A stretch of DNA of 64,000 nt from Desulfomonilia bacterium (GCA_963664325.2 CAXXDQ010000003.1:544001-608000); one strand, 5' to 3'. Shown: positions 2 through 32,094, counted from the first letter of the stretch. Program-made: numbers and translations. Notes: generated by a model from the letters alone, not told the origin.

Positions 2-3000
2 ATATTAGGGGGCATAATCCCTGTTCCCCTTCCTATTCCGGGTTCATTTCCGATCAGTGAGGGAATGGAAAGAATTACAAAAGTCTGCGAAGTTCTTGAC
101 AGGTTCTGCATAATAACCGACCAGCCTGCACAGAATTACAGATCTCTTGGAAATGTTGATCTGCTCGAAGTTAAGGAATTGCTTGAATTTGCCCCGGACG
201 GGAATCATCACAATCCCAAACCGGATGATATAGCCTATCTCCAGTTTTCTTCCGGCTCGACAGGAGACCCCAAGGGTGTAATGCTTTCCCATTTCAATCT
301 GGTTTATACGATTGATGCATCGGCTAAATGTGTTTTTGATGTCAGGGGGAATGATATAAGGCCGACACTTGGCTATGGTATTCATATCCTGAAGCACAAG
401 CTGTCAATGAATGACAGGCTCGGCAGCATAGCAAAGTTTATATCTTGGGTATCCAAAGGATCTCTTGGTAAAAATATACGCTCCTCAAAAATTGGGAACG
501 ACATTTTAGATACACTGCTAATTTTCAGCGGAAACAAAATATCCGCTTACACTGATATGCGTTTTAACGAGATAAAGATCGTAAACTGGATGCCATATTC
601 CCATGACATGGGGCTTATCGGTTTCCATCTGGCGCCGACAATGGGCGGAATGGATCAGGTGAAACTCGAACCAAAGACATTTGTGCACAGTCCGGCGCTT
701 TTCCTGAAGCTTATTGACAAATACAGGGCGACTCATGTTCCTTGTCCAAATTTTGCAGTTCAGTGGCTGACAACGCAGGTCAATGAAGATGATATAAAGG
801 GTATTGATCTGTCGTGCATAAAGTGTCTTGGAAATGGTTCGGAACCTATATCACCATCGGTTTCAAGGAATTTCATACAAAAGTATGAAAAATTCGGATT
901 TGATGAAAGGGCCATGTTCATGAGCTATGGAATGGCCGAGGCGTCACTTCAGGTTACTGCTCCTCCAGTATTTACAAAACCTGTGTTTCACAAGGTGCAC
1001 AAGGATGTTTTTATAAAAGACCAGATAATACTTCCTGTTTCATCAGATGAAGACAGCATTGAAATAACGGATCTTGGCGCTCCTGTTGCCGGTATGAAGA
1101 TAAGGATTGTTGATGACAATGATAATCTTGTCCATGAAAACACGGTAGGTCACATACAGTTGCAGGGATCCAATGTAGTCAGTGGTTATTATAAGAATGA
1201 TGCTGCAAATAAGGATCTGTTCTGTGGACCATGGCTACGTACCGGTGATATGGGATTTATGAAAAACGGCCGTATCACGTTAACGGGAAGACGCAAGGAT
1301 ATTATCTTTGTTAACGGCCAGAACCTTTATGCCCATGATATAGAAGAACAGGTAAGGCGTGTTCCCGGTATGGCATTCCGGGAATTTGCAATAACAGGAC
1401 TTAGGCATTTGGACAGCGACAGCGAGAAAGTTATTCTTTTCATAAACACTACCGAGTCAATAACATCACTTTCGTCTCTTTTATCAAGACTTAATGAAAA
1501 CCTTGTATCATCCATAGGAATCAAGATTGATTTTATCGTCCCGGTCCATGAGATACCCAGGACACCGAGTGCGAAGGTCAAGCGCTACAGTCTCAGGGAT
1601 AAGTTTGAAAAGGGCATGTATGAAACCGTTATTTCGTTAAATGATATAGTCGGGCATCTATCAGCTTCAAAGGATGAAAAGGGATTTGAACTTACTGGGG
1701 TCGAACATCGCATTATTGAAATCTGGAGGGACGTCCTCGGGGTAGATTCAATATCCAAGATTGACAACTTTTTCGACCTCGGCGGCAATTCACTTCGAGC
1801 AACAAAAGTTACATCGAGAATACGTGAGGAATTCGGCATTGAGTTGGGACTGAAGGCCGTCTTTGAAAGCCAGACGGTTGAAGCTCTGGCTAAAGTTGTT
1901 GAATCCTTGACACGAAAGGAACCGGAAGACTTTTCAAAAATCAAACCCCTTGAAAAGGCCCAGAATTATGAACTGTCCCATGCCCAAAAAAGGTTATGGC
2001 TACTTGATAAAGTGGTTCCAGACAGTCCGTTTTACAACATCCCAGGAGCAGTCCTTATTGACGGAATTGAACTCGATCTTGCTCTCCTTGAGAAATCTCT
2101 TCAGGCTGTTACTGACAGACACGAGACACTGAGAACGGTTTTCAGGACCATAAATGATGAGCCTGTGCAGGTCGTAAATGAGTCATACAAGATTGAAATG
2201 CCGATATATGACCTGACGCACGAAGTCGATAAGCATGAAAAGCTTCAGGCAATAATATCTGAAGAAAAGATCAGGCCGTTTGACTTGGAATCCGGCCCGC
2301 TGTTCAGGACTATGATCATAAAACTGTCAGCTACAAGTAATGTGTTCATGACAGTAATGCACCATATTATCTCTGACGGCTGGTCCATGGCCCTTCTTGT
2401 TCAGGAGGTTATAGGAAATTATTTGGGATTCAGTTCGAAGAATTCATCACCTTATCCTGAATTAGCTATACAATACAGAGATTTTGCATTCTGGCAGAAT
2501 CGCCTGCTTGAAGGAGATGGCATAAAAGAACAGGAAAAATACTGGCTTGAAAATCTATCTGGAGCTTTGCCCGTATTGAATTTGCCCACCGACAGACCCA
2601 GGCCAACCATTCAGACACAGAGAGCTGGCACTGCAAGAATCAAGATTGACCAGAAAACACTGAAGGGCATCAAGGAACTAGCAAGGAAAGAAGATGTAAC
2701 AATGTTCATGATGACACTGGCCCTTTTCGATGTGATGCTTTCAAAGCTTTCTGGGCAGGAAGATATCATAATAGGCTCCCCGATCGCCGGCCGGAACAAT
2801 ACTCAAATTGAACCGTTAATAGGATTCTTTGTAAATGTCCTGCCTATGAGGATTAACCTTTCCGGAAACCCGAATCTTTCAGAACTTCTGAGGCGTGTAA
2901 AGGAAATGTCAATAGGCGCCTACGCGAACCAGGAATATCCTTTTGACAGGCTTGTTGAGGTTATTAATCCGGTGAGGGATCTAAGCAGGACTCCTATTTT

Positions 3001-6000
3001 CGACATTACTTTTGAATATCGTGAGGCATCGGCGAATCCTTTTGCAGGAATATCCGGGATATCAATAAAGGATGTCACCGGAGACGATCCGAATTCCAGA
3101 TTTGACATGAGTGTTACGGGTTATGAGGAAGCTGACGGAATAACCATGCGCTTCGAATATAATGCCGACCTATATGAAAGATCGACTATTGAGCGTTTCA
3201 TGGATTATTATAAGAATATAATCAATGATGTTATTAAAAATCCCCAAAAGACAATTTCTGAAATAGCAATACTTGGAGAGATTGAAAAGAAAAGGGTTCT
3301 TCTGGATTTCAACAATACTTCAAAAGAGTATCCTGAAGCTAAGTGTATTCATAGTATAATTTCAGAGAGAGCAAATGAATTCAAAGACAAGGTTGCATTA
3401 ATTAGCAGAGATCGTGAAATCAGCTATTCCGAGATGGAGAGATTATCAGGGAACCTGGCTGTTTATCTAATGTCACATGGAATAGGCAAAGGCGATACGG
3501 TATGTATCCTTTCTGAAAGGTGTCCAGAACTTATCATGGCAGAGATAGGAATATGGAAAACCGGTGCTATGTTCGTTCCGGTTGATCCTGATTATCCTAC
3601 TGAGCGTATCCGATACATGATTGAAGATTCAGGAGCGAAGATGTTCCTGACAACATCTGAGATGCTGCAGTATGCACCGAAAGGTGAAATTGAACTTGCA
3701 TTAATTAATACAGATTCAAAGGTCTGGGAATCAGATAGTATAATGGACAAATATAATCAAGACCCTGATTCCATAGCTTATGTAATTTACACATCGGGAT
3801 CTACAGGAAGACCCAAGGGGGTCAAGATACGACACAGAAATTTGGCAAATTTTATACACCTTAATCTTGATTTATATGGTATCAATTATCAGGATAGATC
3901 GTCAAACTTGGCAGGTGTTGCTTTTGATGCATCTGCGTGGGAGATATGGCCATATCTGTGTGCAGGTGCGATAATTGTATGCCTTGACAAGAATCTTGGC
4001 AAGATGATGCCAGAGGATCTTGCTGAATGGTTCTCAAAATACAATATAACACGTTCATTTATACCAACAAAATTTGCTGAAATATTTGTCAGTGAACATT
4101 TCGAAGGGTTGACTTTAAAAACACTATTTACAGGTGGTGACAGGTTAAGCTTTGTTCACTCTGGTGGCAGCTACGAGTTGATTAACGCATACGGTCCTAC
4201 TGAAACAACAGTTATTGCATCGGCCTGTGATGTAACTCACTGGGACAACACCAGAGGCGTACCTCCAATTGGAAAACCTTTGCCGAATATAAAAATATAC
4301 ATTCTTGACAAATATTTGAATCCAGTTCCCGTAGGTGTTACTGGCCAAATTTACATTGGTGGTGCTGGGGTAGGTGCAGGATATGTTAATGACCCCGAGA
4401 AGACGAAGCAGGTATTCATACCAGACCCATTTACAGAAGGAGCAGAGCTAATCTATGCAACCGGTGACTTGGCGCGATGGCTCCCGGATGGCAATATAGA
4501 TTTTATAGGAAGAAACGATTTTCAGGTAGAAATAAGAGGGTATAGAGTTGAACTTGGAGAGATTGAAACTGTTTTATCTTCCTATACAGGAATAAAAGAA
4601 TGTGTTGTTATAGATAAAAAGGATGATGAAGGACAAATCAGACTTGTAGGTTTCTATGTTTCTGATTTTGTCCTCAATGAAAATGAAATCAAGGATTATC
4701 TTCGTGAACACCTGCCACCTTACTTGATACCTTCAAGAATTATCTATCTCGAAGCATTTCCTCTTACTTCTAACGGAAAGTTAGACAGGACGGCTCTGTC
4801 GTCAATGATTGACGTGACTGTCGATGCTCTTAGGGAGTTTATTGAACCGTCTACACAAACAGAGAAGGAACTTGAAGCATTCTGGAGGGTGTCCCTCGGA
4901 GTAGAAAAAATAAGTGTTAATGATAATTTCTTTGATATAGGAGGAAATTCATTAAGGGCGACGAGGATAGTTTCCTGGGCAAGAGAAAAATATCGTATCG
5001 AACTGCCGCTAAAAGCCATATTTGAAAACCAGACCCTTGGTCAGCTGGCTTCAGAAATTGATAACATTAAATCGTTTGGATTAAAGTCCGTACTGCCGGC
5101 AATTGAAAATATTATTCCGGCTGAATATTATGAAGTCTCACATGCTCAGAAAAGACTTTGGTATATAGACAAGATTGTTCCGAACAGCCCATTCTATAAT
5201 ATTCCAGGCGCCGTATTGATTGAAAATACACCTATTGACTTGGAATTATTAAAAGAGGCGTTTCAGGCTGTTGTAGATCGGCATGAAAGCTTAAGGACAA
5301 CAATTGTAACGATAAATGAAAAACCGTTCCAGAAGATATCAGATAAGATGGATCTCGATATCGAAATCTTCGATTATCGTAACAGCAATGAAAAAGATGT
5401 TAAGCTTCGTGAATTGATTGAAAAAGAAAAAACTAAGCCATTCAGCATCGAAAATGGTCCATTGCTAAGGATAAGCGTGGTGAGGCTTACGGAATTGTCC
5501 AATGCGCTGATACTCAATATGCACCATATAATTTCTGATGGATGGTCCATGGGTATTCTGGTCAGAGAGGCTTTTGCGAATTACATAGCATTAGCCCAGG
5601 GAAAATCATCTCCTTTTGAAGAACTTAAAATTCAGTATAAGGACTTTGCTGACTGGCAGAACAAACTTCTTGAAGGTGAAGAGATTAAAGAACAGGAGAA
5701 ATTCTGGGTCGATAAGTTGTCCGGTGAACTTCCTGTCCTTAACATGCCTACAGACAGGGTTAGGCCTGCCGTGCAGACGCAAAACGGTGCAGTAAAACGC
5801 TGCAATCTTTCCCTGGATGAATCTGTTATGCTCAGGAATTCTGCAAAAGATCTAAATATAACGCCATTTATGCTCACACTCTCAATGTTCTTGGTATTCT
5901 TGAACAGAATTACAGCGCAAGAGGATATTATTGTTGGAACACCTGTTGCAAACAGGAATAATGCACAAATAGAACCGCTCATAGGATTTTTTGTAAACAT

Positions 6001-9000
6001 GCTTCCCATTCGTGTTGATATTTCAGGTAACCCTTCATTTAGTGAGTTTGCAAAGATTGTAAAACAGACATGCATTATGGCCTATGCGCATCAGGACTAT
6101 CCTTTTGATAAGCTTGTTGAAGCGATAAATCCAGCAAGAGACCTCAGCAGGAATCCTATATTTGATGTTGCTTTCGATTTTCACGAAATATCGGCAAATC
6201 CTATTGCGAGTGTAAATCTTGGAGGTATGAAGTTAAAGGATATAACCGGAGATGATACAACTTCAAAGTTCGACTTTTTAGTGACTGGATATGAATCGGA
6301 TGAAGGTGTAACATTTACTTTTGGTTACAATACAGATCTTTTCAATGACAATACTGTTGAACGCTTGATAACATATTTTAAGAATCTTCTAGAAGACGTC
6401 ATTGTCAGTCCGAACAAGAAATTATCTGAGTTCTCTTTAATTGATGATCATGAAACAAATCGGATACTTTATGGGTTTAATGATACCGTCAGAGAATATG
6501 ACAAAGAAAAACCTGTTCACGTTCTATTTGAAGAAATTGCCAAACGATTCCCTGACAAAGAAGCTCTTGTGTTTGAAAACAAAAGCATGAGTTACAGGGA
6601 TCTCAATGAACGTTCCAATCGAATCGCAAAATATCTCAGAGATAACGGAGTGGAAAAGGGCACATGCGTGGCAGTAATGGTAAAGCGCTCTTTCGATATG
6701 CTAGTAGCTGTTCTGGGCATACTGAAAGCGGGTGGAGCCTATGTCCCGATCGAATCGGAATATCCTATGGAAAGAATCCAGTATATGTTGACTGACATTA
6801 AGACCCCTGTTGTTGTTGTCAATGAATCATTGATTGGAAGCCTTAAAGGATATGAAGGCCATGTGCTTTGTCTTGAAAGATTCTGGGATGATTTTACATC
6901 AGAAGGAAACTCGGATCTTCCCAATGTTAATACTTGCGATGACCTTGCGTACATAATCTATACCTCGGGTTCAGCGGGAACTCCTAAAGGTGTCATGGTA
7001 CCTCATGTCGGAATTACGCGCCTTGTCAAGAATACGAATTATGCCGAGATCACTGATGCTGACAGATTCCTGCAGGTCGCAACCATTGCATTTGATGCCG
7101 CTACAATGGAGTTCTGGGGTCCTCTTTTGAATGGAGGAACACTTTTCCTCGTCTCCAGTGAAGATTCGGTGAATCCAGACCGGATTGGCGAATTAATTAT
7201 AAAACATGATATTTCCATTCTTTTTATTACTACGGTCATGTTTAATCAACTTGTAGATATAAGGCCAGATGCGCTTGCCAATCTGAAGAGTCTTCTAACA
7301 GGTGGAGAGATGCAGTCTATTACACACATGAGGAAGGCATTCAGCCAGGTTCGTCCCGGAGTTCTTACACATGTTTACGGACCGACTGAAAACACTACTT
7401 ATTCAACTTATTACAAAGTTACGGCAATACCGGAAGACATAACCGGTGTACCTATTGGCTATCCTCTGGCTAATTCAACTGCATATATACTAGACAAGTA
7501 CCATAATCCGGTCCCGATCGGCATTCCGGGTGAGATATATGTAGGAGGTCTTGGACTGGCTAAGGGGTATCTCAATGACCCTGAAAAAACTTCGGGTGTT
7601 TTTATCCCCAACCCCCTTGCCGGAGTGTCTGAAAATATCCTTTATAAAACAGGCGATATCGGTAAATGGCTTCCGGACGGTGCTATTGAAATAATGGGAC
7701 GCATCGATCAACAGGTGAAAATCAGAGGTCACAGAATTGAACTTGGGGAAATTGAAACCACAATAAGGAAGCATGAACTGGTCAGGGACACAATAGTTGT
7801 AGTTAAAGACATGGGCTTGAACAGCAAGATGCTTCTCGCCTATTATGCAAGTGACAAGGAAATACCGACAGATGTTTTCAGGACCTTCTTGCGGGAGAGT
7901 CTTCCGGATTATATGGTGCCGAACATATTCATCAGACTGGATTCCCTTCCTCTTAAGAAAAGCGGCAAAGTGGATAAAGCTGCCTTGCCTGAGCCCAAGG
8001 GATTGCGTCCTGAAATGGCTACCGAATATGTCGAACCGAGAAATGAGATAGAGGAAATAATTGCCAGGGCTTGGCAAGAAGTCCTCGGAATTGACAAAAT
8101 AGGTATATTTGACAACTTCTTTGATATAGGGGGAGATTCAATAGTAAGTCTTCAAGTCGTAAGCCGTCTGAACCGTAAAGGATTCAATCTTCAACCTAGA
8201 GATATCCTGCAATATCAGACAATCGCGGAACTCGGATCCGTTATTGTATTTACAAAAGGGATTGAAGCCGAACAGGGTGCTGTAACAGGCAGTTCAACTC
8301 TGACGCCTATTCAGCGCTGGTTCTTCTCGCAAAAACTTCATAATGAAAATCATTTCAATCAGGCATTGCTTTTTTCTTCCCAGTCAAGACTTGACGAGGA
8401 TGCACTTAAAAAAGCTTTCCAAGCTCTAATTGATCATCATGATGTATTGCGTTCGCGTTTTGTGGACAGCAGTATTCAGGAATTTATTGCTTTGGGAGAA
8501 GAAGTAGCATTCAGAGTTGTAACGCTTGAAAACGATGCGCTTATGGGTGAAGAGATACTGAAATTGCAGGCATCGCTGAATATAAATGAAGGTCCAATAT
8601 TCGCTGCCGGACTTCTTCATGCAAGTGCTGAAGACTATTTAGTTGTTGCCTGCCATCACCTTGTAGTTGATGGAGTATCATGGAGAATTTTGATGGAAGA
8701 TCTGATGACTGGCTACTTCCAGGTAATCGGAGGAGGTAATGTTGAACTACCTGAAAAATCGACATCATTCAAAGAGTGGGCAAACAAGCTTTCTGAATAT
8801 GCGCTTGAGAGTCAAGTAGCTGCAGAAGAAATATGGTGGAAGGGTATACTCAGTGATGAATTACCGCAAATCTCAATAGAGCAGGATTTAGGTCCGAATA
8901 ATATAGCATCTGTCTCTGCAGCAACAGTCGAGTTAAATGAAAAAGAAACATCACAACTTCTGAAAGAGGCACACCATGCATACAATACTGATGTAATCGA

Positions 9001-9628: not shown

Positions 9629-9635
9629 GGAGTTC

Positions 9636-18600: not shown

Positions 18601-20459
18601 AAACTGCTTTGTCAGGTTATCAGGAAATCAACGATTGCGTGGTTGTTGCACGAAACGACGGAGCCGGAGGAAAGTACCTTGCAGGGTATTATGTTGCGGA
18701 AAAGGAAATCCCCGTTGGTGACCTGAGGTCATACCTGTCTGCCTCTCTTCCGGATTACATGGTGCCTGCCCGCTTTATGAAACTTGACGCCATGCCGCTT
18801 AATACAAGTGGCAAGGTTGACAGGCTTGCGCTTCCGGAACCGGATGCATTCAGGCCTGACATGGCTGCCGAGTATGTCGAGCCGCGGAATGAAATAGAAA
18901 AAGTACTCTCAGAGGTCTGGCGTGATGTCCTCAGAGTGGACAAGGTCGGTGTTTTTGATAATTTCTTCGACCTTGGCGGAGACTCGATAATCAGCCTTCA
19001 GGTGGTATCCAGGCTGAAGAAATTCGGTTATGAGATAAAGCCGAGGCATATGTTCGAATACCAGACGATCGCAGCTATTGCCCCGGTCGTTGAGTTGATC
19101 AGAACCGTAACAGCGGTGCAGGGGGATGTGACTGGCACTGCCCCTTTGAATCCTGTACAGAGGTGGTTCTTCGACCAGAGTTTTGAAGACGAAAATTTCT
19201 ACAACCAGACATTTGTCCTAAGCTCAGGTGTGAGGATTGACGAGGCGGCCATAAAAAAAGCCGGCGAAGCGGTTGTTATGCATCATGATTCGCTCAGGGC
19301 CCGTTTTGACCGGGAAAAACAGGAGTTCATGCCGGCTGGCCAGGGTCCAATCTTCGTCTTCAAAAATATCAAGGACGTCGATGAACTCAAAGGCGAGGTC
19401 ATGTTGCTTCAGTCATCGCTCGACATCAGTAATGCAAGGGTCTTTGCCATGGGTTTATACAGGCAGGACAAGTCCGATTACCTGGCCGTGACCGCACACC
19501 ACCTGGTGGTCGACGGCGTTTCTTGGAGGATATTGTTTGAAGACCTGTTCAAGGCCTACAGCGATATTCTTTCAGGCGCCAGTGTAAAGCTGCCGGATAA
19601 GACGTCCTCATTTAAAGACTGGTCAATGAAGGTCAGCGCATATGCCCCGAAAGTGCTTGAGGAATTTGCATGGTGGGAAAATATTCTGACGGGAGGGGTA
19701 TTCAGTATACCTGTTGAACATGAAAACGGGCTTAACGATGCCGGATCTGCACTTTCAATAAGTGTTAAACTTGATGAAGAAAAGACAGACCAGCTAATTA
19801 AAACCGCTCACCGGGCATATGGCACGGAGATAAACGATCTGCTCCTTACTGCATTAATGAGATCGATATCAGGATGGACAGGTAATTCCAAGGTGACATT
19901 CGATCTTGAAGGCCATGGCAGGGAAGACATATTTGACGACATGGATATAACAAGGACCGTAGGATGGTTTACCACTATATATCCTGTTGTTCTTGATGCA
20001 GGGAAAAATAAACTTTCTGAACAGATCAAACATGTTAAGGAAGCATTAAGGGCGATTCCTGATAAGGGATTTAACTACGGAATATTGAAGTATATACTTG
20101 GTCAGGATCTGCCATTGTACAGCGGTCTGAGCTTCAATTACATGGGTCAGATTACAGCAGACATATCGGGATTGCCTGTAAAATTTGAGGATATTGGACT
20201 GAAAACAACTCATGGCAAGAATCACAGACCAAATCTAATTGACATCATCGGAATAGTATCGGACGGCAAATTCAGGGCGGATTTCATCTACAGCCCGAAC
20301 ATTCACGAAAGGGAAACCATTGAATGTCTGGCAAACAGCTTTATAAATGAAATCAGCAATGTGCTTGAGCACTGCATGGATCCTGCAAGCTTTGATATAA
20401 CTCCTTCGGACTTCGGTCTTGATGTGGCTCAGGAGGAACTGGATCAGATTTACGAATGA
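9636..20459 (+). CDS. NRPS subunit 2: C(DCL)-A(Asn)-T-C-A(Ser)-T-C-A(Gln/Glu)-T-E; split here into ORFs 9636-11000 and 11220-20459 by three +1 homopolymer indels
   Basis: The two ORFs are in the same frame. The intervening DNA encodes A-domain N-terminal sequence (FNDTSVPFPDRKCIQEF, LTYKELDERSNSLAHYL) across shifts at G3 ~10970, T5 ~11094 and G5 ~11179. Motifs HHILLDGWC, GGHSL x2, GGDSI, HHLVVDGVSW, TPSDF. SD aaggag before 9636. Confidence 0.9.
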
Positions 20460-20476
20460 TATTAAAGGAGTCATAG

Positions 20477-23400
20477 ATGTCGTTTGTTACGAAAGAGAAT
20501 ACGCAGGATATTTATCCATTGTCGCCCACACAAAAAGGGATGCTGTTCCATTCGGTACTTGAGCCGGATGCGCCAGTATATTTCGAGCAGTTCTCATTTA
20601 CTATCGCAGGTAACCTTGATGAAGATATTTTCAGAAAATCATGGGAGCATCTGGTAGCTTCAACTCCTGTTTTCAGGACCGTGTTCAGATGGTCAAAGCT
20701 TAAAGATCCTTTACAGATTGTCCTTAAGGAACTTCCGGTAGACATAGCCCTGATAGACTTGTCCGGGATGGATCAGCCGGATCAGTATCCTAGGATTGAT
20801 GAATTCATGGTTAAGGAAAGATCATCACCATTTAAGCTTGAAGAATGGCCTTTGATGAGGCTGACCCTTTTCAAGCTTGGAAATGAAAGGCATCATTTCC
20901 TCTGGAGTCACCACCATATCCTCATTGACGGCTGGTGCATGCCGCTTGTTCTGAAAGACCTTTTTGAGACTTATCTTTCGTTGATGACAGGCCAGACGCC
21001 TCCAAGACCAATGCGCCGCGCATACAAAGACTATATCAACTGGCTGGCAAATCAGGATCAGGACAAAGCCAGGAGTTTCTGGATCGGGATGCTTGATGGT
21101 TTTGAAACCCCTAATATTCTCCCATATGATTACAGGCGAGGGGAAATTGATGAAACAGGTTCTTCGATGGTACGACTGTCTCTTCCAGCGGATATGTCGG
21201 ACAAGCTTAAAGAAGTTGCCAGGAAAGAGCGTATTACTATCAGCACTCTGCTTCAGGCTGCCTGGGCAGTATTGCTTAGAACATACAGTGTCCAGGATGA
21301 CGTGGTATACGGGACAACGGTTTCAGGCAGACCTGCTGATTTGAAGGGATCGGAAGATATAATAGGGCTTTTTATAAATACGCTTCCTGTAAGAGTGAAG
21401 TTCGATGATCAGACGACACTCTCGGGTGTATGCAAGCAGATTCAGGATATCTCGGTGGGCATGAGAGAATTTGAGTATTCATTGCTGCCTGATGTAAAAG
21501 CCGCGTCTGGTATTCCAAGAGATCAGAATCTTTTTGACAGTATCTTTGTGTTCGAAAATGTACCAACGGATGCCGTCTCCGGAATGAGAAATAATGGCCT
21601 GGGCATTTCAAACGTTAAGGGTTTTGAAATGACAAATTTTCCCATTACGATCATTGCCGTACCCGGAGATATCCTGAATATAGACATTCACTATCATAAG
21701 GCCCTTTTCAGCAATCTTACAGTTTCTCGGATGACTGGTCATATGCGGCAGGTTCTTAATGCAATGGTCGATAATCCGGCAAAGAAAATTTCTGAAGTTG
21801 ATATACTTACACTTGATGAGAGAGAAGAAATACTTATAGGTTTCAACAAAACAGACTCGTATTGGCCTGAAGATAAGTGTCCCTACCAGTCATTCGAAGA
21901 GCAAGTGTTGAAAACTCCTGATAAGACTGCATTATGGTTTGATGGAAAATCCTTGAGCTATATGGAGCTGAATTCCAAAGCAAACTGTCTGGCAAATTTC
22001 TTGAAAAAGAAAGGACTTGAAACAGAAGGTAAAGTTTGTCTTCTCATGGAACGCTCCCTTGAAATGATCATATCCATACTTGCTATACACAAGGCCGGGG
22101 GATGTTATGTGCCGATGGACCCTGAATACCCGAAGGCAAGGCTGGAATACATGCTTGAAGATTCCGCAAGCAGGTTTCTTTTAACACAGGAAAACCTTGC
22201 GGCAAGACTAAACAGGTTGCCTGCCGATGTTGTTCTCATAGACAAAGAGTCTGTTGAAATTTCAAATGAAAATAATATGAATCCGGCTCCATCGGCAACT
22301 CCCTCAAACCTGTCTCATATAATCTATACCTCAGGTTCGACCGGTTTACCTAAAGGGGTAATGATAGAACACAGCAACGTGACTGCATTTCTTTCCTGGT
22401 GTCAGGAAGAATTTCAATTTGAAGAGTATGAAGAGATGATAGCCTCGACCTCGATGTGCTTTGACTTGTCCATCTTCGAGTTTTTTTTGCCGCTTGTTAC
22501 AGGGGCAAGGGTGATCATACTTAAATCATCGCTGGAAATTAATGACTACTTGAATGAACATTCTGCAACAATGATTAATACGGTGCCTTCAGCCATTCGT
22601 TATTTATGCACCGTTGCTGAAAAAAAGCACAGAGTTAAAGCGGTTAATCTTGCTGGTGAACCGCTCAAGCTCGACTTGGTGAAAGATATCTACAGCAACC
22701 TGGATGTCGGTATAATTAGGAATCTGTACGGACCGACAGAGGACACGACATACTCGACGAATTTCAGGGTACCAAAAGACTTTAACAGACAACCTCTTAT
22801 CGGCAGGCCCTTGTCCAACGGTCAGGCATACGTACTGGATAAAAACCTGAAGCCGGTACCCATAGGTATCAAAGGAGAGATCTACCTTTCTGGTGCCGGC
22901 CTTGCACGAGGCTATTTCAATGCACCTGAAAAGACGGCTCAGAGGTTTATTCCCCATCCATTTTCAAATAAATGGAAATATATATATAAGACAGGTGATC
23001 TTGGCAGCTGGCTTCCAGACGGCAACCTCGATTTTCATGGCAGGGTTGACTATCAGGTTAAAATCAGGGGCAACCGTATTGAAATGGGCGAGATCGAGGC
23101 AAGGCTTGCTCTTCATGAGATGATCAAGGATGTGGTAATCGCTGATAAGGATGACAGTGAAGGCAACAAGTATCTTGTCTGTTATTATGTATCTGAAAAT
23201 GAAATTCCTGTTGCCGAATTGAGAACCTTTATTCAGGAAAAGCTCCCTGAATATATGGTCCCATCCCGGTTTATCAAAATGGAGGAACTGCCACTGACTC
23301 CGAATGGCAAGGTCGACCGGAAGGCCCTTCCTGACCCGGGTGATGTCAGCATGCAAGTTTCATCGGAATACATACCACCGGCAGGACAGATTGAAGAGGC

Positions 23401-24778
23401 AATCGCACAAGTTTGGATGGAAGTGCTGGGAGTGGAACGAATCAGCAGGCATGATAATTTCTTTGATCTGGGAGGACATTCACTTCTTGTTATGAAGGCA
23501 CTCGCGAAGCTTAAGTTCAGTTATGAACTGACTATGCAGGATTTTTTCGATTGCCAGACAATTGCCGAAATATCAACAAGACTTGAAGACAGGAAAAACG
23601 CGGTTAAAACTTCCGAACATATATTGAAGGAAGAACAGCCTGAAAAGATAACAGTTGATATAAATGTCTCTGAAGAGAGAGAAGAGCCTGAGCTTATTGT
23701 GCTTACCGGCGTCACAGGTTATCTTGGCGCCCATCTGCTCTATGAAATGTTGATGCGTACGAATGCTCATATCTGCTGCCCTGTAAGGGCTGCCGGCAAG
23801 GATGAAGCCTATGAAAGGATATTGTCTGCATCCGGGTTTTATTTCGGTGATAATCAAATCGACGTTAAGCGATTGATCCCTGTTTGTGCAGATATCTCTC
23901 TCGACGGGCTTGGTCTTGATGAAGAGGGCAGAAGGATTATACGTTCGGCGGATTGCGTGATTCATTCTGCTTCAGATGTAAGTCACTATGGTGAATATTC
24001 TCATTTTAAAAATGTTAATGTGCTTGGTACAATGCGTTTGATGGATTCTTTAAATCAGGAAAAAATAAAAAGATTCCATTATATATCGACATTAAGCATT
24101 GCCGGAGACGCGATCCCTGATTATTCAAAGGCGTTTTTCAGAGAGACTGATTATGATAGAGGGCAGACACTGGGCAATGTTTATGCAAAAAGCAAGTTTG
24201 AAGCGGAGGGTCTTATAAGGGCTGCCCGGGCAAAAGGTTTAAATGCTACAGTTTACAGGATTGGTAATCTTGTTGGTTCAACGGATAACGGAAAGTTTCA
24301 GCGCAATATAGCTGATAATGCATTTTATGGCCTTATCAAGGCAATCTCGGAAATTCAAACGCTGCCCCAAGGGATGGATTCCAAATTCGATATGACTCCA
24401 ATTGATTCGTGTAGAATAGCCCTTGCAAATCTCATGCTGATGCCGCAGACATCAAATCTGTGTTTTCACGTGTTCAATCCCAACATGGTAAGCATCTATG
24501 ATATTGCTGCAGGTCTGAAACTGGAAGGTTTTGACATAAATACAATACCTGCAATAGATTTTATGGAAAGCATTAAAAACAGCGAAGAAGCAAGTAAACT
24601 GATGATGCCGCATCTTTCAGGAAGTCATTCCCCGAAAACATTCTTTGTATATGATAACAGCTATTGTGAGCACTTCCTGAAAAAGGCCGGTTTTGCCTGG
24701 CATAAAATTGAAGGTGATATTATGCAAAAAATTGTCCATTACTGCATTTTGACGGGATTTATAAAATCCCCGGTTTAG
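20477..24778 (+). CDS. NRPS subunit 3: C(DCL)-A(Ala)-T-terminal thioester reductase (R)
   Basis: HHHILIDGWC; A-domain code DLFNNALTYK; GGHSL; Rossmann motif LTGVTGYLG and YAKSK (YxxxK); no TE domain. Confidence 0.95.
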   Translation: MSFVTKENTQDIYPLSPTQKGMLFHSVLEPDAPVYFEQFSFTIAGNLDEDIFRKSWEHLVASTPVFRTVFRWSKLKDPLQIVLKELPVDIALIDLSGMDQPDQYPRIDEFMVKERSSPFKLEEWPLMRLTLFKLGNERHHFLWSHHHILIDGWCMPLVLKDLFETYLSLMTGQTPPRPMRRAYKDYINWLANQDQDKARSFWIGMLDGFETPNILPYDYRRGEIDETGSSMVRLSLPADMSDKLKEVARKERITISTLLQAAWAVLLRTYSVQDDVVYGTTVSGRPADLKGSEDIIGLFINTLPVRVKFDDQTTLSGVCKQIQDISVGMREFEYSLLPDVKAASGIPRDQNLFDSIFVFENVPTDAVSGMRNNGLGISNVKGFEMTNFPITIIAVPGDILNIDIHYHKALFSNLTVSRMTGHMRQVLNAMVDNPAKKISEVDILTLDEREEILIGFNKTDSYWPEDKCPYQSFEEQVLKTPDKTALWFDGKSLSYMELNSKANCLANFLKKKGLETEGKVCLLMERSLEMIISILAIHKAGGCYVPMDPEYPKARLEYMLEDSASRFLLTQENLAARLNRLPADVVLIDKESVEISNENNMNPAPSATPSNLSHIIYTSGSTGLPKGVMIEHSNVTAFLSWCQEEFQFEEYEEMIASTSMCFDLSIFEFFLPLVTGARVIILKSSLEINDYLNEHSATMINTVPSAIRYLCTVAEKKHRVKAVNLAGEPLKLDLVKDIYSNLDVGIIRNLYGPTEDTTYSTNFRVPKDFNRQPLIGRPLSNGQAYVLDKNLKPVPIGIKGEIYLSGAGLARGYFNAPEKTAQRFIPHPFSNKWKYIYKTGDLGSWLPDGNLDFHGRVDYQVKIRGNRIEMGEIEARLALHEMIKDVVIADKDDSEGNKYLVCYYVSENEIPVAELRTFIQEKLPEYMVPSRFIKMEELPLTPNGKVDRKALPDPGDVSMQVSSEYIPPAGQIEEAIAQVWMEVLGVERISRHDNFFDLGGHSLLVMKALAKLKFSYELTMQDFFDCQTIAEISTRLEDRKNAVKTSEHILKEEQPEKITVDINVSEEREEPELIVLTGVTGYLGAHLLYEMLMRTNAHICCPVRAAGKDEAYERILSASGFYFGDNQIDVKRLIPVCADISLDGLGLDEEGRRIIRSADCVIHSASDVSHYGEYSHFKNVNVLGTMRLMDSLNQEKIKRFHYISTLSIAGDAIPDYSKAFFRETDYDRGQTLGNVYAKSKFEAEGLIRAARAKGLNATVYRIGNLVGSTDNGKFQRNIADNAFYGLIKAISEIQTLPQGMDSKFDMTPIDSCRIALANLMLMPQTSNLCFHVFNPNMVSIYDIAAGLKLEGFDINTIPAIDFMESIKNSEEASKLMMPHLSGSHSPKTFFVYDNSYCEHFLKKAGFAWHKIEGDIMQKIVHYCILTGFIKSPV

Positions 24779-24787
24779 AATAATTAC

Positions 24788-26257
24788 ATGATAGGGAGTA
24801 GTGAAATGAGGATTGCAATTGTAACCGGGGCATCATCAGGCATGGGTGTTGAATTTGCCCTTCAGATAGACGATGTGATCGAACTGGACGAAATATGGCT
24901 TATTGCAAGGAGAAAGGACAGGCTTGATGAGGTTTCCAGAAAACTGAAAAGGGCCAAAGGTATTCCAATTGTCTTAAATCTGTCCCAAAAAGGTGAAGTA
25001 GAAAAGCTGAGAAACATGATTGCAGACGAGAAGCCTGATATCAAGTTTCTGGTAAATAATGCAGGATACGGCCTTGTCGGCGAATTTGCCCAACAGGAAA
25101 TCCGGCCGCAGCTTGATATGATTAACCTTAATGTTACTGCCCTTGTCGAGATTACTCATTGCTGTATTCCGTTTATGAAAACGGGCAGCCATATAATACA
25201 GGTTGGTTCTGTTTTCGGACATCTTCCAGGAGTGGCAGGATGGGCGGTATATGCCGCGACCAAGTCTTTTGTATCTTCCTTTTCATTTGCTCTTTCCAAA
25301 GAACTTAAAAGTTCAGGCATTAATGTTACTACTGTAACCCCGGCGGGAGTGAAAACCGAATTTGGCGATGTCGCGGGAGCAGGGAGATTCGATCTGGTCA
25401 GCATGGGCTCTGAACCTGCAGTTGTAGTGAAAAAAGCTATTGAAGATGCAATGAATAAGAGGATGCTATCAATTTTCGGATTTGAAGCTAAATTAAGCGC
25501 GTTTCTCCCCCGTATTCTAAGGAAAGAGACCATGCTGAAGATTGTTTCTTCAGGTACGGCATCTAACCAGTCAATAAGTAATTATTATATCAACAGGGAA
25601 GCCAGGATAAAAAAAGATTTTGAAAAAAGCATGTTACTGTTCGGAAGCGTACTGGCAGGAAAATACAACAAGGAAAGGGCTTTGAAGATTGTTTCAGAAG
25701 CGACACAAAAGTATGCCGACATTATTCCGATTCTGCCTTATGTTGGTGGAGACAACCAGCCGATGATGACACAAAGAATTCTATATGCCGCAACCTGTTT
25801 GGCTCTTTATAGGGCTATGAAGGATGACGGGACAGCCTTAACAGAAATCGGGCAGGTTATTTACGATTCGATAAATAAAGAATATTCGACATTCCCCAAA
25901 AATATTCTAACTAAAATAAACAAGAGGCTGCTTTTTTCTGACATGAATAAGAAAGCGCTTAGGAACGCAGCAATAATCTCACAAGAAAGAAGGTTTCCTG
26001 AAAGTGGAGTGATGTTGTATGTTGAAGGAGATGAGAATAACTTTGACTATGGACTTGATATTATTGAATGCCCGATAAAAAAATTCCTTGAAAAACAGAA
26101 TGCTGCCGAATTGACAACATATATATGCAAGACGGATTTCCCAGTCAGCAAAGCTAACTCGTCAGGCCTTTTCAGAACCTCAACCCTTGCTGAAGGGGGG
26201 CGGGTATGTGATATGCGCTGGAAGAAGAATGGACCAGTATCGGATATCGTCGGATAA
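24788..26257 (+). CDS. SDR oxidoreductase fused to an L-2-amino-thiazoline-4-carboxylic acid hydrolase-like domain (start may be ATG 24806)
   Basis: N-terminal TGASSGMG, NNAG, YAATK. C-terminal ECP...ICKTDF...RTSTLAEGGRVCDMRW pattern of the ATC-hydrolase family. Confidence 0.75.
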   Translation: MIGSSEMRIAIVTGASSGMGVEFALQIDDVIELDEIWLIARRKDRLDEVSRKLKRAKGIPIVLNLSQKGEVEKLRNMIADEKPDIKFLVNNAGYGLVGEFAQQEIRPQLDMINLNVTALVEITHCCIPFMKTGSHIIQVGSVFGHLPGVAGWAVYAATKSFVSSFSFALSKELKSSGINVTTVTPAGVKTEFGDVAGAGRFDLVSMGSEPAVVVKKAIEDAMNKRMLSIFGFEAKLSAFLPRILRKETMLKIVSSGTASNQSISNYYINREARIKKDFEKSMLLFGSVLAGKYNKERALKIVSEATQKYADIIPILPYVGGDNQPMMTQRILYAATCLALYRAMKDDGTALTEIGQVIYDSINKEYSTFPKNILTKINKRLLFSDMNKKALRNAAIISQERRFPESGVMLYVEGDENNFDYGLDIIECPIKKFLEKQNAAELTTYICKTDFPVSKANSSGLFRTSTLAEGGRVCDMRWKKNGPVSDIVG

Positions 26258-26290
26258 TATCTTAAGGCATGTTAAGGGAGAAATACACGT

Positions 26291-27034
26291 ATGATGCCCT
26301 GGATAAAACTTTCAAAAGGGGAAAATGATCATTTCAGGGTTTTCTGCTTTCCTTATTCAGGGGCGACGGCTCAGGTTTTCAGACCTCTGACGCAGTTGCT
26401 TCCGGAAGGGGTATCTGTTTATTCATACGAGCTTCCGGGTCGTGGACGCAGGTTTAATGAAGAAATTCCCGGGACACTTGCGGAAATTATCGAAGAAGCT
26501 TTTTTATCTATCAATAGAATTATCGACAGGCCATATATATTTTGGGGGCATTCACTTGGCGGAATAATAGGCTATGAAATGGCCAGACATATAAGAACAA
26601 ATAATCATCCGCTACCCAAACATTTATTTGTTACGGGTATCAGGGCTCCGCAGGTGCCAAAACGGGAAAAGGATGTATATGACCTTCCACGTGATGAATT
26701 TATTGAAAAAATCAAGGAGATGGGAGGGACACCCGAAGAAATCTTTAATCATGAAGAAATGCTGGATATTATGATACCGATCCTGAAAAAAGATTTTAAG
26801 ATATATGAGATGTATCGCTTTACACCGGATATGCCAATGCCGTTTCCAATTACCGCTATTGGAGGACTTGATGATAAATTCGTCTCAAAAGAAGATCTTG
26901 AACAATGGTCTGTGCATACATCATCATTATTCGACATGCATATGTTGGCAGGGGATCATTTCTTTATATTTGATAATATGAATAATATTGCGCAGTCGAT
27001 TGCCAGGGCAATTTTTCGGATGAATCAGAAGTAA
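26291..27034 (+). CDS. Type II thioesterase
   Basis: FCFPYSG, LPGRG.RF, GHSLG nucleophile, GDHFF; SD aagggag. Confidence 0.92.
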   Translation: MMPWIKLSKGENDHFRVFCFPYSGATAQVFRPLTQLLPEGVSVYSYELPGRGRRFNEEIPGTLAEIIEEAFLSINRIIDRPYIFWGHSLGGIIGYEMARHIRTNNHPLPKHLFVTGIRAPQVPKREKDVYDLPRDEFIEKIKEMGGTPEEIFNHEEMLDIMIPILKKDFKIYEMYRFTPDMPMPFPITAIGGLDDKFVSKEDLEQWSVHTSSLFDMHMLAGDHFFIFDNMNNIAQSIARAIFRMNQK

Positions 27035-27106
27035 GGGTTTTATTGGAATGCAACAGGATTATCTATGGTTTTATAATATTAGAAAATTAAACTGTAACGG
27101 GGGCTT

Positions 27107-28855
27107 ATGTTTACAGGGAAAAGACATATGATCGTTATTATAATCATTCTGATCTCGATTGCAGCGCTGTCAATTGCTTACCGTTTTTATTCAGCCGGCC
27201 AGATCATCCCCTGGAAAGTACCATCTGACAATTTTGATGAAGATATTGTGCAAACACTCAGACAATACAATGTGCCTTCTCTTGTCGCCTGTATTATAAA
27301 GAAAAATGAAAGCGGTATCTGGGAAATAGTATGGGAGAGTGCCTATGGTTACAGAAAGGCATTTTTTCCAAGAGCAAAGGCGTCTTTGGATACAATCTAT
27401 CCAATAGGTTCAATAACGAAAACATTTTTGGCTACAGCCATAATGCAACTCAAGGAGAAAGGGCTTATTGATATTGACGCAGATATTAGCAATTATCTTC
27501 CTTTTCAGCTCCGAAATCCCGGCCTGAATTACAATAATCATGACGTCTCTGTTCCACCAATAACAGCACGGATGCTTCTTTCTCACCGTTCGGGTCTGCC
27601 CTCGACCGATATGAATTTTTTTGCCGATCATAAAAGTTTTTCCAAAATGGATTTTGGAGTTTTCAAGGATATTAATGACCTCAAGACATATCTTTCAGAT
27701 AAAAATTCATGGGCGCATGTTGATCCCGATAACCCCAGTAAGCTATATTTTTACAAGCCCGGGGATATATACAGCTATTCAAATGTCGGATACCTTATTC
27801 TTGGTTATGCCCTTGAGAATATAATTAACAAAAATAAAGAGCACCTTGGATTTTCTCAGAAGTATGTGACATGGAAAGATTTTATAAGGGAAAAGATTCT
27901 TGCTCCACTTGGTATGGAAAACACAAGATTTTCGTGGAGTGATTATGGTTGGCTTCATTATAACCAGGCTCAAGGGTATCTTGAGAAAAAACATGTGTAC
28001 AGCTTCAATCCGGATTACCCTGCAACCTCTGAGAATAGCAAAAATCCCCCGAGTTATGCCCCCGGTATACCCATACCCAAGGAGATATTGATTCCAAGAA
28101 AGCCTCCTTTGCGTAATCCCACGCTGGGTTTTCTTTATAATTGCGGTGGGCCTGCTGGCGAAATGAAATCTAACATCAGTGAGATGGCTTATTTTTTGAT
28201 CGCATTTCTCAATGATGGTATTGGTTATAAAAGAAATAAGAATGGAGATATAATAATTGATAAAAATGGCAATCCTGTTGCTGTCAGGATTTTATCCCCT
28301 GAGTCAGTAAAAGAAATGAAATTTGTTGATGATCCGAGGCTTTGTTCCATTAATGTTAACCAGTTCAAGAAAGATAATACGGGACTTGGGAGTCTGACAG
28401 GGTACGGCCTGGGATGGATGAGTTCGGAAAGGGGAGGGCGTTATTGGAATTATCCCTGGTTTTCCAAGGCCAGTGAGACCCTGTTGGTCAACTGGGAGCC
28501 TCTTTTAAAAGCAGGACTTAAAAAGAAAGACAGAATATTGTCAAACAATGGAGTTTCCTGCGGCGGGCTTGAAGTATCCGGAAATGAAGGAGACCTGCCG
28601 GGTTATCGTTCGGCAATGCTGAAACTTTCAGATGACCTTGCGATCATCTATTTTATGAATGAATTCTATTCAGATGAAATCAGGGATGAATCCAGGATTC
28701 AGCCAAGAAGGTTCAGATATTATAACTCTGCCTGTGACGGTGCGCCTGAATTAAGAAAAACAGACGGTGCATTTCCGAATGACAGGGTAAAGGTAAGCGA
28801 ACTGGAATATATTTTAATAAGAAAAGCGGCCGATCTCTTGAATGGCAAAAGGTGA
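27107..28855 (+). CDS. Beta-lactamase-family serine hydrolase (S12 peptidase/esterase) with N-terminal membrane anchor
   Basis: SxxK (GSITK), LLSHRSG, YSYSN, YGLGW; hydrophobic N-terminus. Confidence 0.85.
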   Translation: MFTGKRHMIVIIIILISIAALSIAYRFYSAGQIIPWKVPSDNFDEDIVQTLRQYNVPSLVACIIKKNESGIWEIVWESAYGYRKAFFPRAKASLDTIYPIGSITKTFLATAIMQLKEKGLIDIDADISNYLPFQLRNPGLNYNNHDVSVPPITARMLLSHRSGLPSTDMNFFADHKSFSKMDFGVFKDINDLKTYLSDKNSWAHVDPDNPSKLYFYKPGDIYSYSNVGYLILGYALENIINKNKEHLGFSQKYVTWKDFIREKILAPLGMENTRFSWSDYGWLHYNQAQGYLEKKHVYSFNPDYPATSENSKNPPSYAPGIPIPKEILIPRKPPLRNPTLGFLYNCGGPAGEMKSNISEMAYFLIAFLNDGIGYKRNKNGDIIIDKNGNPVAVRILSPESVKEMKFVDDPRLCSINVNQFKKDNTGLGSLTGYGLGWMSSERGGRYWNYPWFSKASETLLVNWEPLLKAGLKKKDRILSNNGVSCGGLEVSGNEGDLPGYRSAMLKLSDDLAIIYFMNEFYSDEIRDESRIQPRRFRYYNSACDGAPELRKTDGAFPNDRVKVSELEYILIRKAADLLNGKR

Positions 28856-28912
28856 TTTTTGTATTTTTAAAGCATGAAATTGCTTTGCAGATTCGGGGAT
28901 TAAATATCAAAA

Positions 28913-31586: not shown

Positions 31587-31636
31587 GGGTATGAGAAATT
31601 ATATTAACATCAATTTAAAGTAAAGGCCAATTTACT

Positions 31637-31699
31637 AATAGCGAATAAATAATATAAAATACGCTAAAAAAATTAAAATAGCGAATAAATATATTGACA
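31637..31699 (+). promoter_or_regulatory. 15-bp direct repeat AATAGCGAATAAATA x2 (31637, 31677) next to TTGACA (31694) in the divergent intergenic region
   Basis: Exact repeat with 40-bp period; second copy abuts a consensus -35 box. Confidence 0.55.
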
Positions 31700-31731
31700 G
31701 TCGCTTGGCAGGTAAGTCATATATTTATATT

Positions 31732-32028
31732 ATGAACCTGAAATCATGGATAGGCATTATGGGGCTTAAGCAAAAGGTTGTGGCTGAGAACCTCGGCATA
31801 TCAACAAGCTATCTTTCAGAGATACTGACAGGGAAGAAAAAACCCACAATCGAGCTTGCCCAGAGAATTGAGGAATATACCAACAATGAAGTGCGGCGTC
31901 TTGATGTGCTGTACCCTGTGAAAAAGCAGCAGACTGAAGACATTTTGGAGCAGCAATCTAACATGTTTATTTCAAGAGGAACGCCGCTTACGCCCGAATT
32001 GTGTAAAAAGGTTCTTTCGGGAAACTGA
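31732..32028 (+). CDS. XRE/Cro-like helix-turn-helix regulator
   Basis: QKVVAENLGISTSYLSEILTGKKKP HTH; LAQRIEEYTNNEVRRLDVLYP tail typical of Cro/YdaS-like proteins; ATG 31732 preferred to TTG 31705. Confidence 0.8.
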   Translation: MNLKSWIGIMGLKQKVVAENLGISTSYLSEILTGKKKPTIELAQRIEEYTNNEVRRLDVLYPVKKQQTEDILEQQSNMFISRGTPLTPELCKKVLSGN

Positions 32029-32094
32029 TTTTATTAATTAATTTTTACCGGTTTTCATATCCGGCTGATTGATAAATTGAAAAGGAGGTCTGTA

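Follow-up and report, generated by a model that had tools for sequence, protein, structure and literature searches.

In linear gramicidin biosynthesis, which runs from a formyl start through the 16 modules of LgrA-D, the aldehyde formed by the terminal reductase (R) domain is reportedly turned into an amino alcohol by a separately encoded reductase, LgrE, which is not known to be a short-chain dehydrogenase/reductase (SDR). The mycobacterial glycopeptidolipid synthetase Mps1/Mps2 is a four-module line accompanied by glycosyl- and methyltransferases, yielding a fatty-acylated short D-rich peptide with an alaninol end made via a terminal R domain. In canonical lines of another kind, described in the survey PMC8460268, a fatty acyl-AMP ligase (FAAL) is fused to an acyl carrier protein (ACP) and a nonribosomal peptide synthetase (NRPS), and the acyl chain is passed to the first condensation (C) domain; bacterial FAALs are sorted there into stand-alone, ACP-fused, and megasynthase-fused forms. 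Here we analyze a lipopeptide cluster at the beginning of a 64,000-nucleotide stretch (the window, C3:544001-608000, where C3 is contig CAXXDQ010000003.1) of a genome deposited as Desulfomonilia bacterium (GCA_963664325.2, termed G000). An initial annotation of this DNA had described window positions 2..28855 as a six-module lipopeptide NRPS with two D-residues and reductive release in an anaerobe.

Compared by description with Mps1/Mps2, the locus shares the predicted fatty-acylated short peptide with D-residues and an alaninol end; it differs in having six modules, in its taxon, and in that no glycosyl- or methyltransferases were seen in the operon. With LgrA-D and LgrE it shares the logic of an R domain plus a second reductase, and the adenylation (A) domains of LgrA match the sixth A domain of the locus at ~410 bits each in the PDB; its predicted start is fatty-acyl rather than formyl. 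Unlike the canonical FAAL lines of PMC8460268, it carries three FAALs in a row without a carrier between them (two or three in its relatives). We conclude that the cluster is real, uncharacterized, and most likely intact, and that most of its enzyme logic is ordinary. To our knowledge, few nonribosomal peptides from strict anaerobes outside Clostridia have been characterized; a literature search combining Desulfomonilia with nonribosomal found nothing, and the Desulfobacterota gene cluster literature, in the portion sampled, appears to consist of census studies. The locus is a concrete and near-complete target, with ~33 kb in one operon, a predicted peptide sequence, and a phosphopantetheinyl transferase (PPTase) elsewhere in the genome.

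Domain organization and predicted product

The first 28.9 kb of the window contain seven open reading frames (ORFs), all on one strand and spaced by 7 to 72 nt except for one 219-nt gap. Together with DNA upstream of the window they form a single six-gene operon (seven ORFs as deposited) of ~33 kb (C3:540036-572855), the 3' end of which is fixed only by the change of strand because a scan of 28600-29400 gave 0 promoter-like and 0 terminator-like sites. Pfam assigned Condensation, AMP-binding, and PP-binding domains to 2-9628, a single Condensation domain to 9636-11000, and three domains of each kind to 11220-20459. The Pfam scores were 1029 and 1039 bits for Condensation, 654 and 729 for AMP-binding, and 149 and 151 for PP-binding. 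A map of core motifs gave, gene by gene, the order FAAL-ACP-C-A-T-C-A-T-E, then C and A-T-C-A-T-C-A-T-E, then C-A-T-R (T, carrier; E, epimerization), for a tally of 6 A, 6 C, 2 E, 6 peptidyl carrier, and 1 ACP domains. The C-A-T units recur with HHxxxDG, SGSTGxPKG, YGPTE, and GGxS motifs, as in a modular (type I) NRPS. The G+C content of the cluster is 42.8%, against 47.9% for the genome, placing it in the lowest 3.9% among 410 windows of 30 kb.

The six C-A-T modules, the E domains after modules 2 and 5, and the terminal R domain of the initial annotation are borne out by both Pfam and the core motifs. Its "FAAL-ACP start" is correct as to FAAL and ACP, but not as the start of a gene, since the frame is already open at window base 2 and gene 1 begins 3,965 nt upstream. 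Likewise, the interval to 28855 holds the megasynthase, but its description left out ORF5, ORF6, and ORF7, and a release by "R instead of TE" is true of the megasynthase itself, whereas a separate type II thioesterase (TEII) gene is present as ORF6. Domain order, motifs, and codes are read directly from the sequence, and from them the locus is predicted, with good though not full confidence, to encode a FAAL-primed six-module NRPS with reductive release whose product would be an N-acyl hexapeptide. The acyl-hexapeptide logic proposed earlier, with D-residues at positions 2 and 5, follows from the verified order, its chemistry being predicted.

The eight C-like domains form three groups. C1, C2, C4, and C5 show 41-51% mutual identity and share the SHAQKRLW motif; C3 and C6 start with DIYPLSPxQxGMLFH, share 43% identity, and reach 22-27% against the LCL-like C domains; E2 and E5, which carry HHLVVDGVSW, share 48% identity and show 15-21% against the C domains. 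Across the next gene boundary E2 gives way to C3, and E5 to C6, and the carriers ahead of the E domains have the form GGDSI, the remaining ones GG(H/N)SL. The GGDSI form is typical of carriers before E domains. E/DCL pairs of this kind are what one would expect where donors are D-configured. The E tails of genes 1 and 2 (...TPSDFxL...ELD...) are alike, as are the C heads of genes 2 and 3 (M(M)S(Y/F)(L/V)TKxN..DIYPLSP), at ~9500-9700 and 20340-20560. Docking is perhaps not partner-selective, and a short circuit from gene 1 to gene 3, giving a tripeptide product, is conceivable.

To read the specificity codes, we aligned the six A domains with MAFFT and located the ten positions from FDxS, xxxPS, xxGGE, xYGPTExxxx, and GK; the register was checked on a printed A6-LgrA alignment, position 278 resting on the x-x-x-P-S register, and identical alignment columns were applied automatically to twelve A domains. 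The six codes given by the initial annotation were reproduced letter for letter. According to PMC12283262, the commonest Ile code is DAMFLGCTYK, one residue from that of A2, and the commonest Leu code is DAWFLGNVVK, equal to that of A1 at 7/10 positions. DAQDLGVVDK, one residue from the A5 code, serves Glu as well as Gln in the same source; position 5 is accordingly read as Gln or Glu and may be D-Glu rather than D-Gln. The earlier substrate calls are reasonable as predictions. Among the six exact code strings, only DLTKIGEVGK was met in the main texts searched, in one paper; supplementary tables S3-S17 of PMC12283262 may list others. The best single-A-domain PDB match of A6 is a McyA chain (546 bits vs ~410 for others), which supports Ala indirectly. 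DLTKIGEVGK is taken to stand for Asn, DVWHISLIDK for Ser, and DLFNNALTYK for Ala.

In the mechanism that we propose, one or more of the three FAALs would adenylate a fatty acid and load it onto the single ACP, and C1 would join this acyl group to the first residue, which is predicted to be hydrophobic and Leu-like. Modules 2-6 would add an Ile-like residue (D via E2), Asn, Ser, Gln/Glu (D via E5), and Ala, with the DCL-type C3 and C6 taking D-configured donors and the E2/C3 and E5/C6 pairs doubling as protein-protein junctions between gene products. The terminal R domain would use NAD(P)H to free the thioester as an N-acyl-hexapeptidyl alaninal, which the SDR half of ORF5, in its likeliest role and with about an even chance, would reduce to the alaninol. 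ORF6 would clear carriers that have been mis-primed, and carrier priming would fall to an Sfp-type PPTase whose gene lies at another place in the genome. ORF7, which would be anchored outside the cytoplasm, may cut a bond in the exported or a related peptide (maturation or self-protection), which is the weakest step of the scheme.

Table 1 Features of the operon and of neighboring DNA, in window positions.
Feature	Position	Strand	Basis or remark
Gene 1 (4,530 aa), FAAL(F1)-FAAL(F2)-FAAL(F3)-ACP-C1-A1-T1-C2-A2-T2-E2	2..9628 (window part; full start at window -3964, C3:540036)	+	
F3, C-terminal part	2..1705	+	Alignment of F1/F2/F3; ~70 extra residues after P-loop
ACP (LGGNSL), sole carrier for three FAALs	1706..1921	+	PP-binding
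C1, putative lipo-initiation condensation, LCL-like	1922..3289	+	SHAQKRLW, HHIISDG motifs
A1, DAWFFGAVIK, predicted hydrophobic, Leu-like	3347..4885	+	Code reading
T1 (IGGNSL)	4886..5083	+	Pfam, motif map
C2 (LCL-like)	5084..6451	+	C/E motif comparison
A2, DAMFLGVTYK, predicted Ile-like	6509..8065	+	Code reading
T2 (IGGDSI)	8066..8260	+	Motif map
E2, HHLVVDGVSW, docking-like C-terminal tail	8261..9625	+	C/E motif comparison
Gene 2, C3-A3-T3-C4-A4-T4-C5-A5-T5-E5	9636..20459 (split into ORFs 9636-11000 and 11220-20459)	+	
C3 (DCL-like, after E2)	9636..10965	+	C/E motif comparison
C3-A3 linker and A3 N-terminus, three +1 slips at homopolymers	10965..11195	+	Frame map, run contigs
A3 (part inside ORF3), DLTKIGEVGK, predicted Asn-type	11220..12569	+	Code reading
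T3 (LGGHSL)	12570..12779	+	Motif map
C4 (LCL-like)	12780..14126	+	C/E motif comparison
A4, DVWHISLIDK, predicted Ser-type	14190..15719	+	Code reading
T4 (LGGHSL)	15720..15929	+	Motif map
C5 (LCL-like)	15930..17285	+	C/E motif comparison
A5, DAQDIGVVDK, predicted Gln/Glu-type	17346..18899	+	Code reading
T5 (LGGDSI)	18900..19094	+	Motif map
E5, epimerization	19095..20456	+	C/E motif comparison
Gene 3 (ORF4), C6-A6-T6-R	20477..24778	+	Pfam C, A, PP, NAD_binding_4
C6 (DCL-like)	20477-21841	+	C/E motif comparison
A6, DLFNNALTYK, predicted Ala-type	21884-23401	+	Code reading
T6	23402-23611	+	Pfam PP-binding
R domain	23657-24775	+	NAD_binding_4, TGVTGYLG, YAKSK
ORF5, SDR (~1-255) fused to ATC_hydrolase-like domain (~330-478)	24788..26257	+	Pfam
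ORF6, type II thioesterase	26291..27034	+	Pfam Thioesterase, 139.6 bits; kept in G002, G004, G009, L020
ORF7, S12-family (β-lactamase-fold) serine hydrolase, 582 aa	27107..28855	+	Pfam, motifs, hydropathy
MFS_2 transporter, two overlapping ORFs (227 aa, 157 aa)	29292-30345	-	Last ~100 profile positions missing
Six-gene block between GAF-PAS and RACo genes	32077-41930	+	ORF and family survey
Corrinoid methyl-transfer set	43656-50158	-	B12-binding protein, RACo-type activator, three paralogous URO-D/MtaA-like methyltransferases, Met_synt_B12-like fragment

Gene 2, related clusters, and the loading region

The six modules described earlier stand, but the window sequence interrupts module 3. Its frame passes from 0 to 1 to 2 and back to 0 between ~10965 and ~11195, every switch lying at a homopolymer, with the N-terminal ~55 residues of A3 in other frames, and C3 and the rest of gene 2 appear as two ORFs. 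Three sequencing runs (X1, X2, and X3), all from one sample, contain this stretch. X1 and X2 (depth ~10), each of which covers it in a single 35.8-kb record, have one base fewer at each of 10967, 11094, and 11179 and no other difference in 1,601 bases. When the three bases are dropped, one frame of 3,606 aa without stops results, and across the corrected junction 130 aa can be aligned with the ORF4 C-A linker without a gap, at 42% identity. The three slips are, with high probability, errors of the deposited assembly rather than mutations. The deposited genome probably contains local clusters of indel errors, which would lead automated tools to call the cluster broken.

Related clusters were found in the three same-genus genomes (3/3; G001, G002, and G003), and related tails in two further relatives (G004 and G009) and on a metagenome contig (L020). 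The same-genus clusters resemble that of G000 in their locus, in a FAAL-ACP-C1 region of 78-82% identity, and in having six modules, a terminal R domain, an SDR, and a TEII, whereas their gene and module order is different, no S12 gene lies in the cluster, and the SDR is without the ATC-like domain. G002 has the same upstream genes, a 4,541-aa first gene also with three FAALs, and six intact modules, the remainder reading C-A-T-E, C-A-T-E, and C-A-T-C-A-T-R. Its codes in order are DALFAGLVVK, DLFNNALTYK, DLFNCALTYK, DLTKIGEVGK, DAQDIGVVDK, and DVWHISLIDK, which after the first predict Ala, an Ala-like residue, Asn, Gln, and Ser, the same residue alphabet reordered, with D-residues at 2, 3, and 4. 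Between G000 and G002, F1-F3, ACP, and C1 are 78-82% identical and everything after C1 42-71%, which places a breakpoint at the C1/A1 boundary; A domains with equal codes are 64-71% identical yet stand at different positions. The locus offers a clear natural case in which modules have been reshuffled while the initiation block ahead of them is conserved, which is useful for deriving rules of NRPS engineering.

The tails in G009, G004, and L020 read C-A(Ala-type)-T-R, SDR, TEII, Sfp-type PPTase, and S12 hydrolase, an order that G000 shares minus the PPTase. That an intact six-module relative stands at the same locus in G002 and that related tails recur in these three argues for function. Gene 3 has as best homologs unnamed metagenome proteins of 80, 57, 55, and 53% identity, and no characterized homolog is close (named matches ≤41% identity); this is compatible with the "no known compound" of the initial annotation but short of proof. 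As a single query, ORF4 found no relative among genome and metagenome contigs; an alignment query against contigs gave as close matches only L020, 55% identical to ORF4 over its full length, and a few C-A-T matches of 54-57%. A formate-tetrahydrofolate ligase is encoded inside the G004 cluster tail (L018:5997-7619), and SelA just downstream of the L020 cluster (L020:12176-13549); both fit hosts that live anaerobically.

The loading region lies largely upstream of the window: F1 and F2 are wholly outside it according to the ORF list, Pfam on pieces, and motifs, and the A3 motif of a FAAL is found only 84 residues into the window frame. The first 1,890 residues of gene 1 form three FAAL-type domains. 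No PP-binding domain was found between the copies at E≤1e-4; one follows at ORF1 residues ~1892-1954 and then C1, so that the carrier is directly downstream of a FAAL with a C domain next. F1 and F2 share 91% identity, and each is 47.5% identical to F3; the P-loop, YGMAE, RTGD, the A8 motif, and the A10 lysine are present in every copy. Bona fide FAAL structures rank near the top of the F1 matches in the PDB, which include E. coli and Legionella FAALs, FadD32, FadD23, and FadD28. A mis-assembled repeat was ruled out as the origin of F1/F2 by their 9% residue differences and by the two or three copies in separately assembled relatives.

In order to gauge the rarity of tandem FAALs, F1 was compared with 1.84 billion representatives and the 150 best matches were scanned with a FAAL profile. 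Two strong FAAL domains were present in 14 of these 150, directly adjacent in 5, and 4 of those 5 are near relatives (P0155-P0158). Across 40 relatives and G000, F1-type matches occur in 10/25 genomes of family f1 (6/14 genera) and in 0/16 of family f2. In these loaders the F1-type domain is present once, twice, or three or more times, with a single F3-type domain after it, and the F1-type copies across the 6 genera are 55-82% identical with open frames. The identity of F1 to F2 (ORF1 residues 1-1245), 91% in G000, falls to 76% in G002; the G000 copies are both 78-79% identical to G002-F1 and 75-76% to G002-F2, which points to gene conversion or independent re-duplication in G000. A separate F3-like FAAL frame of ~775 aa lies away from the cluster on contigs C45 of G001, C3 of G002, and C62 of G003, 46% identical to the C-terminal two-thirds of F1.

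In the portions of PMC8460268 used here, the tandem FAAL-like architecture of DIP2/CPS1 is stated to be absent from prokaryotes, and in its supplement (12 of 13 files searched) a tandem di-domain is mentioned for plants only; within those portions of this dedicated survey, a multi-FAAL loader is unrecorded for bacteria. The run could represent a new loading module, with a fixed insertion-bearing FAAL at the ACP and exchangeable FAALs each giving a different acyl chain, which with the reshuffled modules would make a plug-and-play platform, an idea that we regard as unlikely. If true, lipid-tail diversity would be hard-wired into a single polypeptide, a natural plug-and-play lipopeptide platform in this anaerobe family.

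Several points weigh against an intact, FAAL-primed line. The best NCBIfam model for the loader, the fatty acyl-AMP ligase model NF006624, gives 330 bits for F1 and 303 for F3 against a cut-off of 600, and C1, compared with the cluster's own C domains, is no separate starter type, since it has SHAQKRLW in common with C2 (51% identity), C4, and C5 (43-45%). G000 is without the in-cluster PPTase of G009, G004, and L020, and no RNA run was found that contains the module-3 stretch. Contigs of X3 (depth 3-4) break at two of the three slip sites and leave a gap over the critical 200 bases, and the sample behind X1-X3 may be the genome's own source, in which case the correction comes from an independent assembly, not an independent population. 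Upstream, an MFS gene (L007:11745-13077, equal to C3:537745-539077) matches its 442-aa G002 counterpart via at least four frame switches; it is either a second local indel-error cluster or a decayed gene, leaving room for genuine decay in the region. Gene 2 might then be truly frameshifted, with at most a short product such as an acyl-X-D-X-alaninal from gene 1 docking on gene 3. The slips as deposited, the broken MFS gene together with the split and truncated MFS_2 downstream, and the alike tails and heads that make cross-docking conceivable all suit this view. We nonetheless consider it very unlikely, since two contigs at depth ~10 are without all three bases, the slips sum to +3 at homopolymer runs with a restored frame that aligns to a normal C-A linker, and the other ~32 kb of the operon show no stop or shift. 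Only the ACP-proximal F3 might load fatty acid, F1 and F2 being redundant duplicates or structural passengers. The 91% identity of F1 and F2, the copy number of the F1 type varying among relatives with an F3-type copy always beside the ACP, and a P-loop in F1/F2 of SGSTGDAKG rather than ...PKG speak for this; the retained A3, A5 (YGMAE), A7 (RTGD), A8, and A10 Lys motifs, the persistence of open F1-type frames over 6 genera, and the divergence of the two G002 copies to 76% without decay speak against it, and on balance we find it somewhat improbable.

Predicted reductive release and accessory genes

The R domain scores 147.6 bits against NAD_binding_4 (cut-off 20.1) and carries, after the last carrier, a nucleotide-binding TGVTGYLG and a Tyr-x-x-x-Lys (YAKSK). 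The presence of Tyr-x-x-x-Lys led us to reject a non-reducing Dieckmann cyclase. Its PDB neighbors are MxaA (the nearest solved), AusA-R, and an archaeal PCP-R. MxaA is a four-electron enzyme, and Mtb Nrp is likewise alcohol-forming. As a general rule, according to PMC7586950, terminal R domains free peptides as aldehydes via a two-electron reduction.

An SDR of ~250 aa lies directly behind the R gene in 5/5 relatives' genomes queried (G001-G004 and G009) and in L020. The ATC_hydrolase-like domain (PF14196, E 7.6e-14) is attached to it, among these, only in G000; an independent metagenome protein (P0306) shows the same architecture, which rules out an assembly artifact. PDB neighbors of the ORF5 SDR include alcohol dehydrogenase, sulfoacetaldehyde reductase, and clavaldehyde dehydrogenase, and a protein atlas returned generic ~255-aa SDR clusters only.

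In ORF7, the Ser-x-x-Lys (SITK, S102/K105) and Tyr-x-Asn (YSN, Y224/N226) motifs are invariant in 4/4 homologs, and the third motif is N-x-G in G000 and H-x-G in 2/4 homologs. A single N-terminal hydrophobic helix is the only one in its hydropathy profile, and ~165 residues fall outside the Pfam model. Its closest solved relatives are Pab87, alkaline D-peptidase, and R61 DD-peptidase, and cleavage next to D-residues is a candidate activity. Homologs of 47-51% identity lie in the G009, G004, and L020 clusters, and the best matches in the three same-genus genomes (33-35%) are on other contigs, not beside an NRPS. By description, ORF7 resembles the S12 peptidases of the BogQ/TriF type, which have the S12 fold, Ser-x-x-Lys, Tyr-x-Asn, an N-terminal export or anchor segment, and a place beside a D-residue NRPS; ORF7 is set apart by its 582 aa, with the residues outside the Pfam model, and by its third motif. 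ClbP shares the S12 fold and is a weak PDB match (E 4e-06); its prodrug has an N-acyl-D-Asn starter and ClbP itself three C-terminal membrane helices, whereas the ORF7 cluster is without a D-Asn start and ORF7 without C-terminal helices. A ClbP-type prodrug role was rejected, given the A1 code DAWFFGAVIK (no Asn) and no E domain after module 1. The concept of D-stereospecific peptidases tied to D-residue nonribosomal peptide clusters is set out in PMC9541196. In a bolder side reading, a D-Gln-alaninal end would mimic the peptidoglycan stem, with ORF7 as a resistant copy of an S12-type target. Outside the cluster, G000 encodes an Sfp-type PPTase (C4:313114-313743) that is 46% identical to the in-cluster PPTase of G009.

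How the peptide leaves the line admits other readings. Against TIGR01746 the R domain reaches 185.8 bits on a 392-aa fragment, just under the cut-off of 213.35, and sequence cannot separate a two-electron from a four-electron reduction; a four-electron R domain like MxaA would leave the SDR without a second-reduction role. The aldehyde (or an adduct) could itself be the final active product, or R could reduce fully to the alcohol, with ORF5 having another target, such as the lipid tail or a cyclic hemiaminal or imine that arises from the aldehyde. The R neighbors are both aldehyde-forming (AusA) and alcohol-forming (MxaA, Mtb Nrp), the extra domain of ORF5 belongs to a ring-opening hydrolase family (PF14196) in a fusion that recurs once, and PMC8648761 describes self-resistance through an SDR whose substrate for reduction is a hemiaminal/aldehyde pharmacophore. 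What the six relatives keep behind R, however, is a plain SDR without the extra domain, for which a second reduction is the simplest shared role, and we hold these readings to be rather doubtful. It is extremely improbable that ORF7 is the true off-loading enzyme, a penicillin-binding protein (PBP)-type cyclase or thioesterase like SurE or Ulm16 that would give a macrocyclic product: Ulm16, a PBP cyclase, is among the PDB sequence matches (E 6.7e-06) and ORF7 is present with all four "Ala-R" clusters seen, but the assembly line already ends in an R domain with intact motifs, the N-terminal membrane or signal helix places ORF7 away from the cytoplasmic synthetase, and the D-peptidase-like Pab87 and alkaline D-peptidase are closer in the PDB.

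Host and surrounding genes

The description of the host as an anaerobe is supported by gene content. G000 encodes DsrA (567 bits vs a cut-off of 393) and an ACS/CdhC-type domain (44 bits vs 24), COX1 (haem-copper oxidase) was not found in this 95.6% complete genome, and a corrinoid methyl-transfer set lies in the window; by these genes, the uncultured host is an anaerobe of the sulfite-reducer type. The labels given by depositors conflict: "Desulfomonilia bacterium" applies to the ≥90% clusters of the RuvC and enoyl-CoA hydratase of the window, and the genomes with related NRPS modules are labeled "uncultured Bacteriovoracaceae bacterium" or "Desulfobacteraceae bacterium". None of these labels was relied on.

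Right behind ORF7, the MFS_2 transporter is truncated and is not homologous to the 513-aa ORF that occupies the corresponding position in G002. Further downstream, the six-gene block encodes two proteins without a family match (497 and 530 aa), a C45-family autoproteolytic acyltransferase/hydrolase (621 aa), a 572-aa protein with weak β-propeller/Ig matches, and two leucine-rich-repeat proteins (444 and 378 aa). The block might be connected with the lipopeptide, for example through a deacylase. The G+C content over 28856-43655 is 43.7%. In G002, the GAF-PAS and RACo genes are ~0.5 kb apart with no ORF of at least 120 aa between them, and the block in G000 may be an inserted island.

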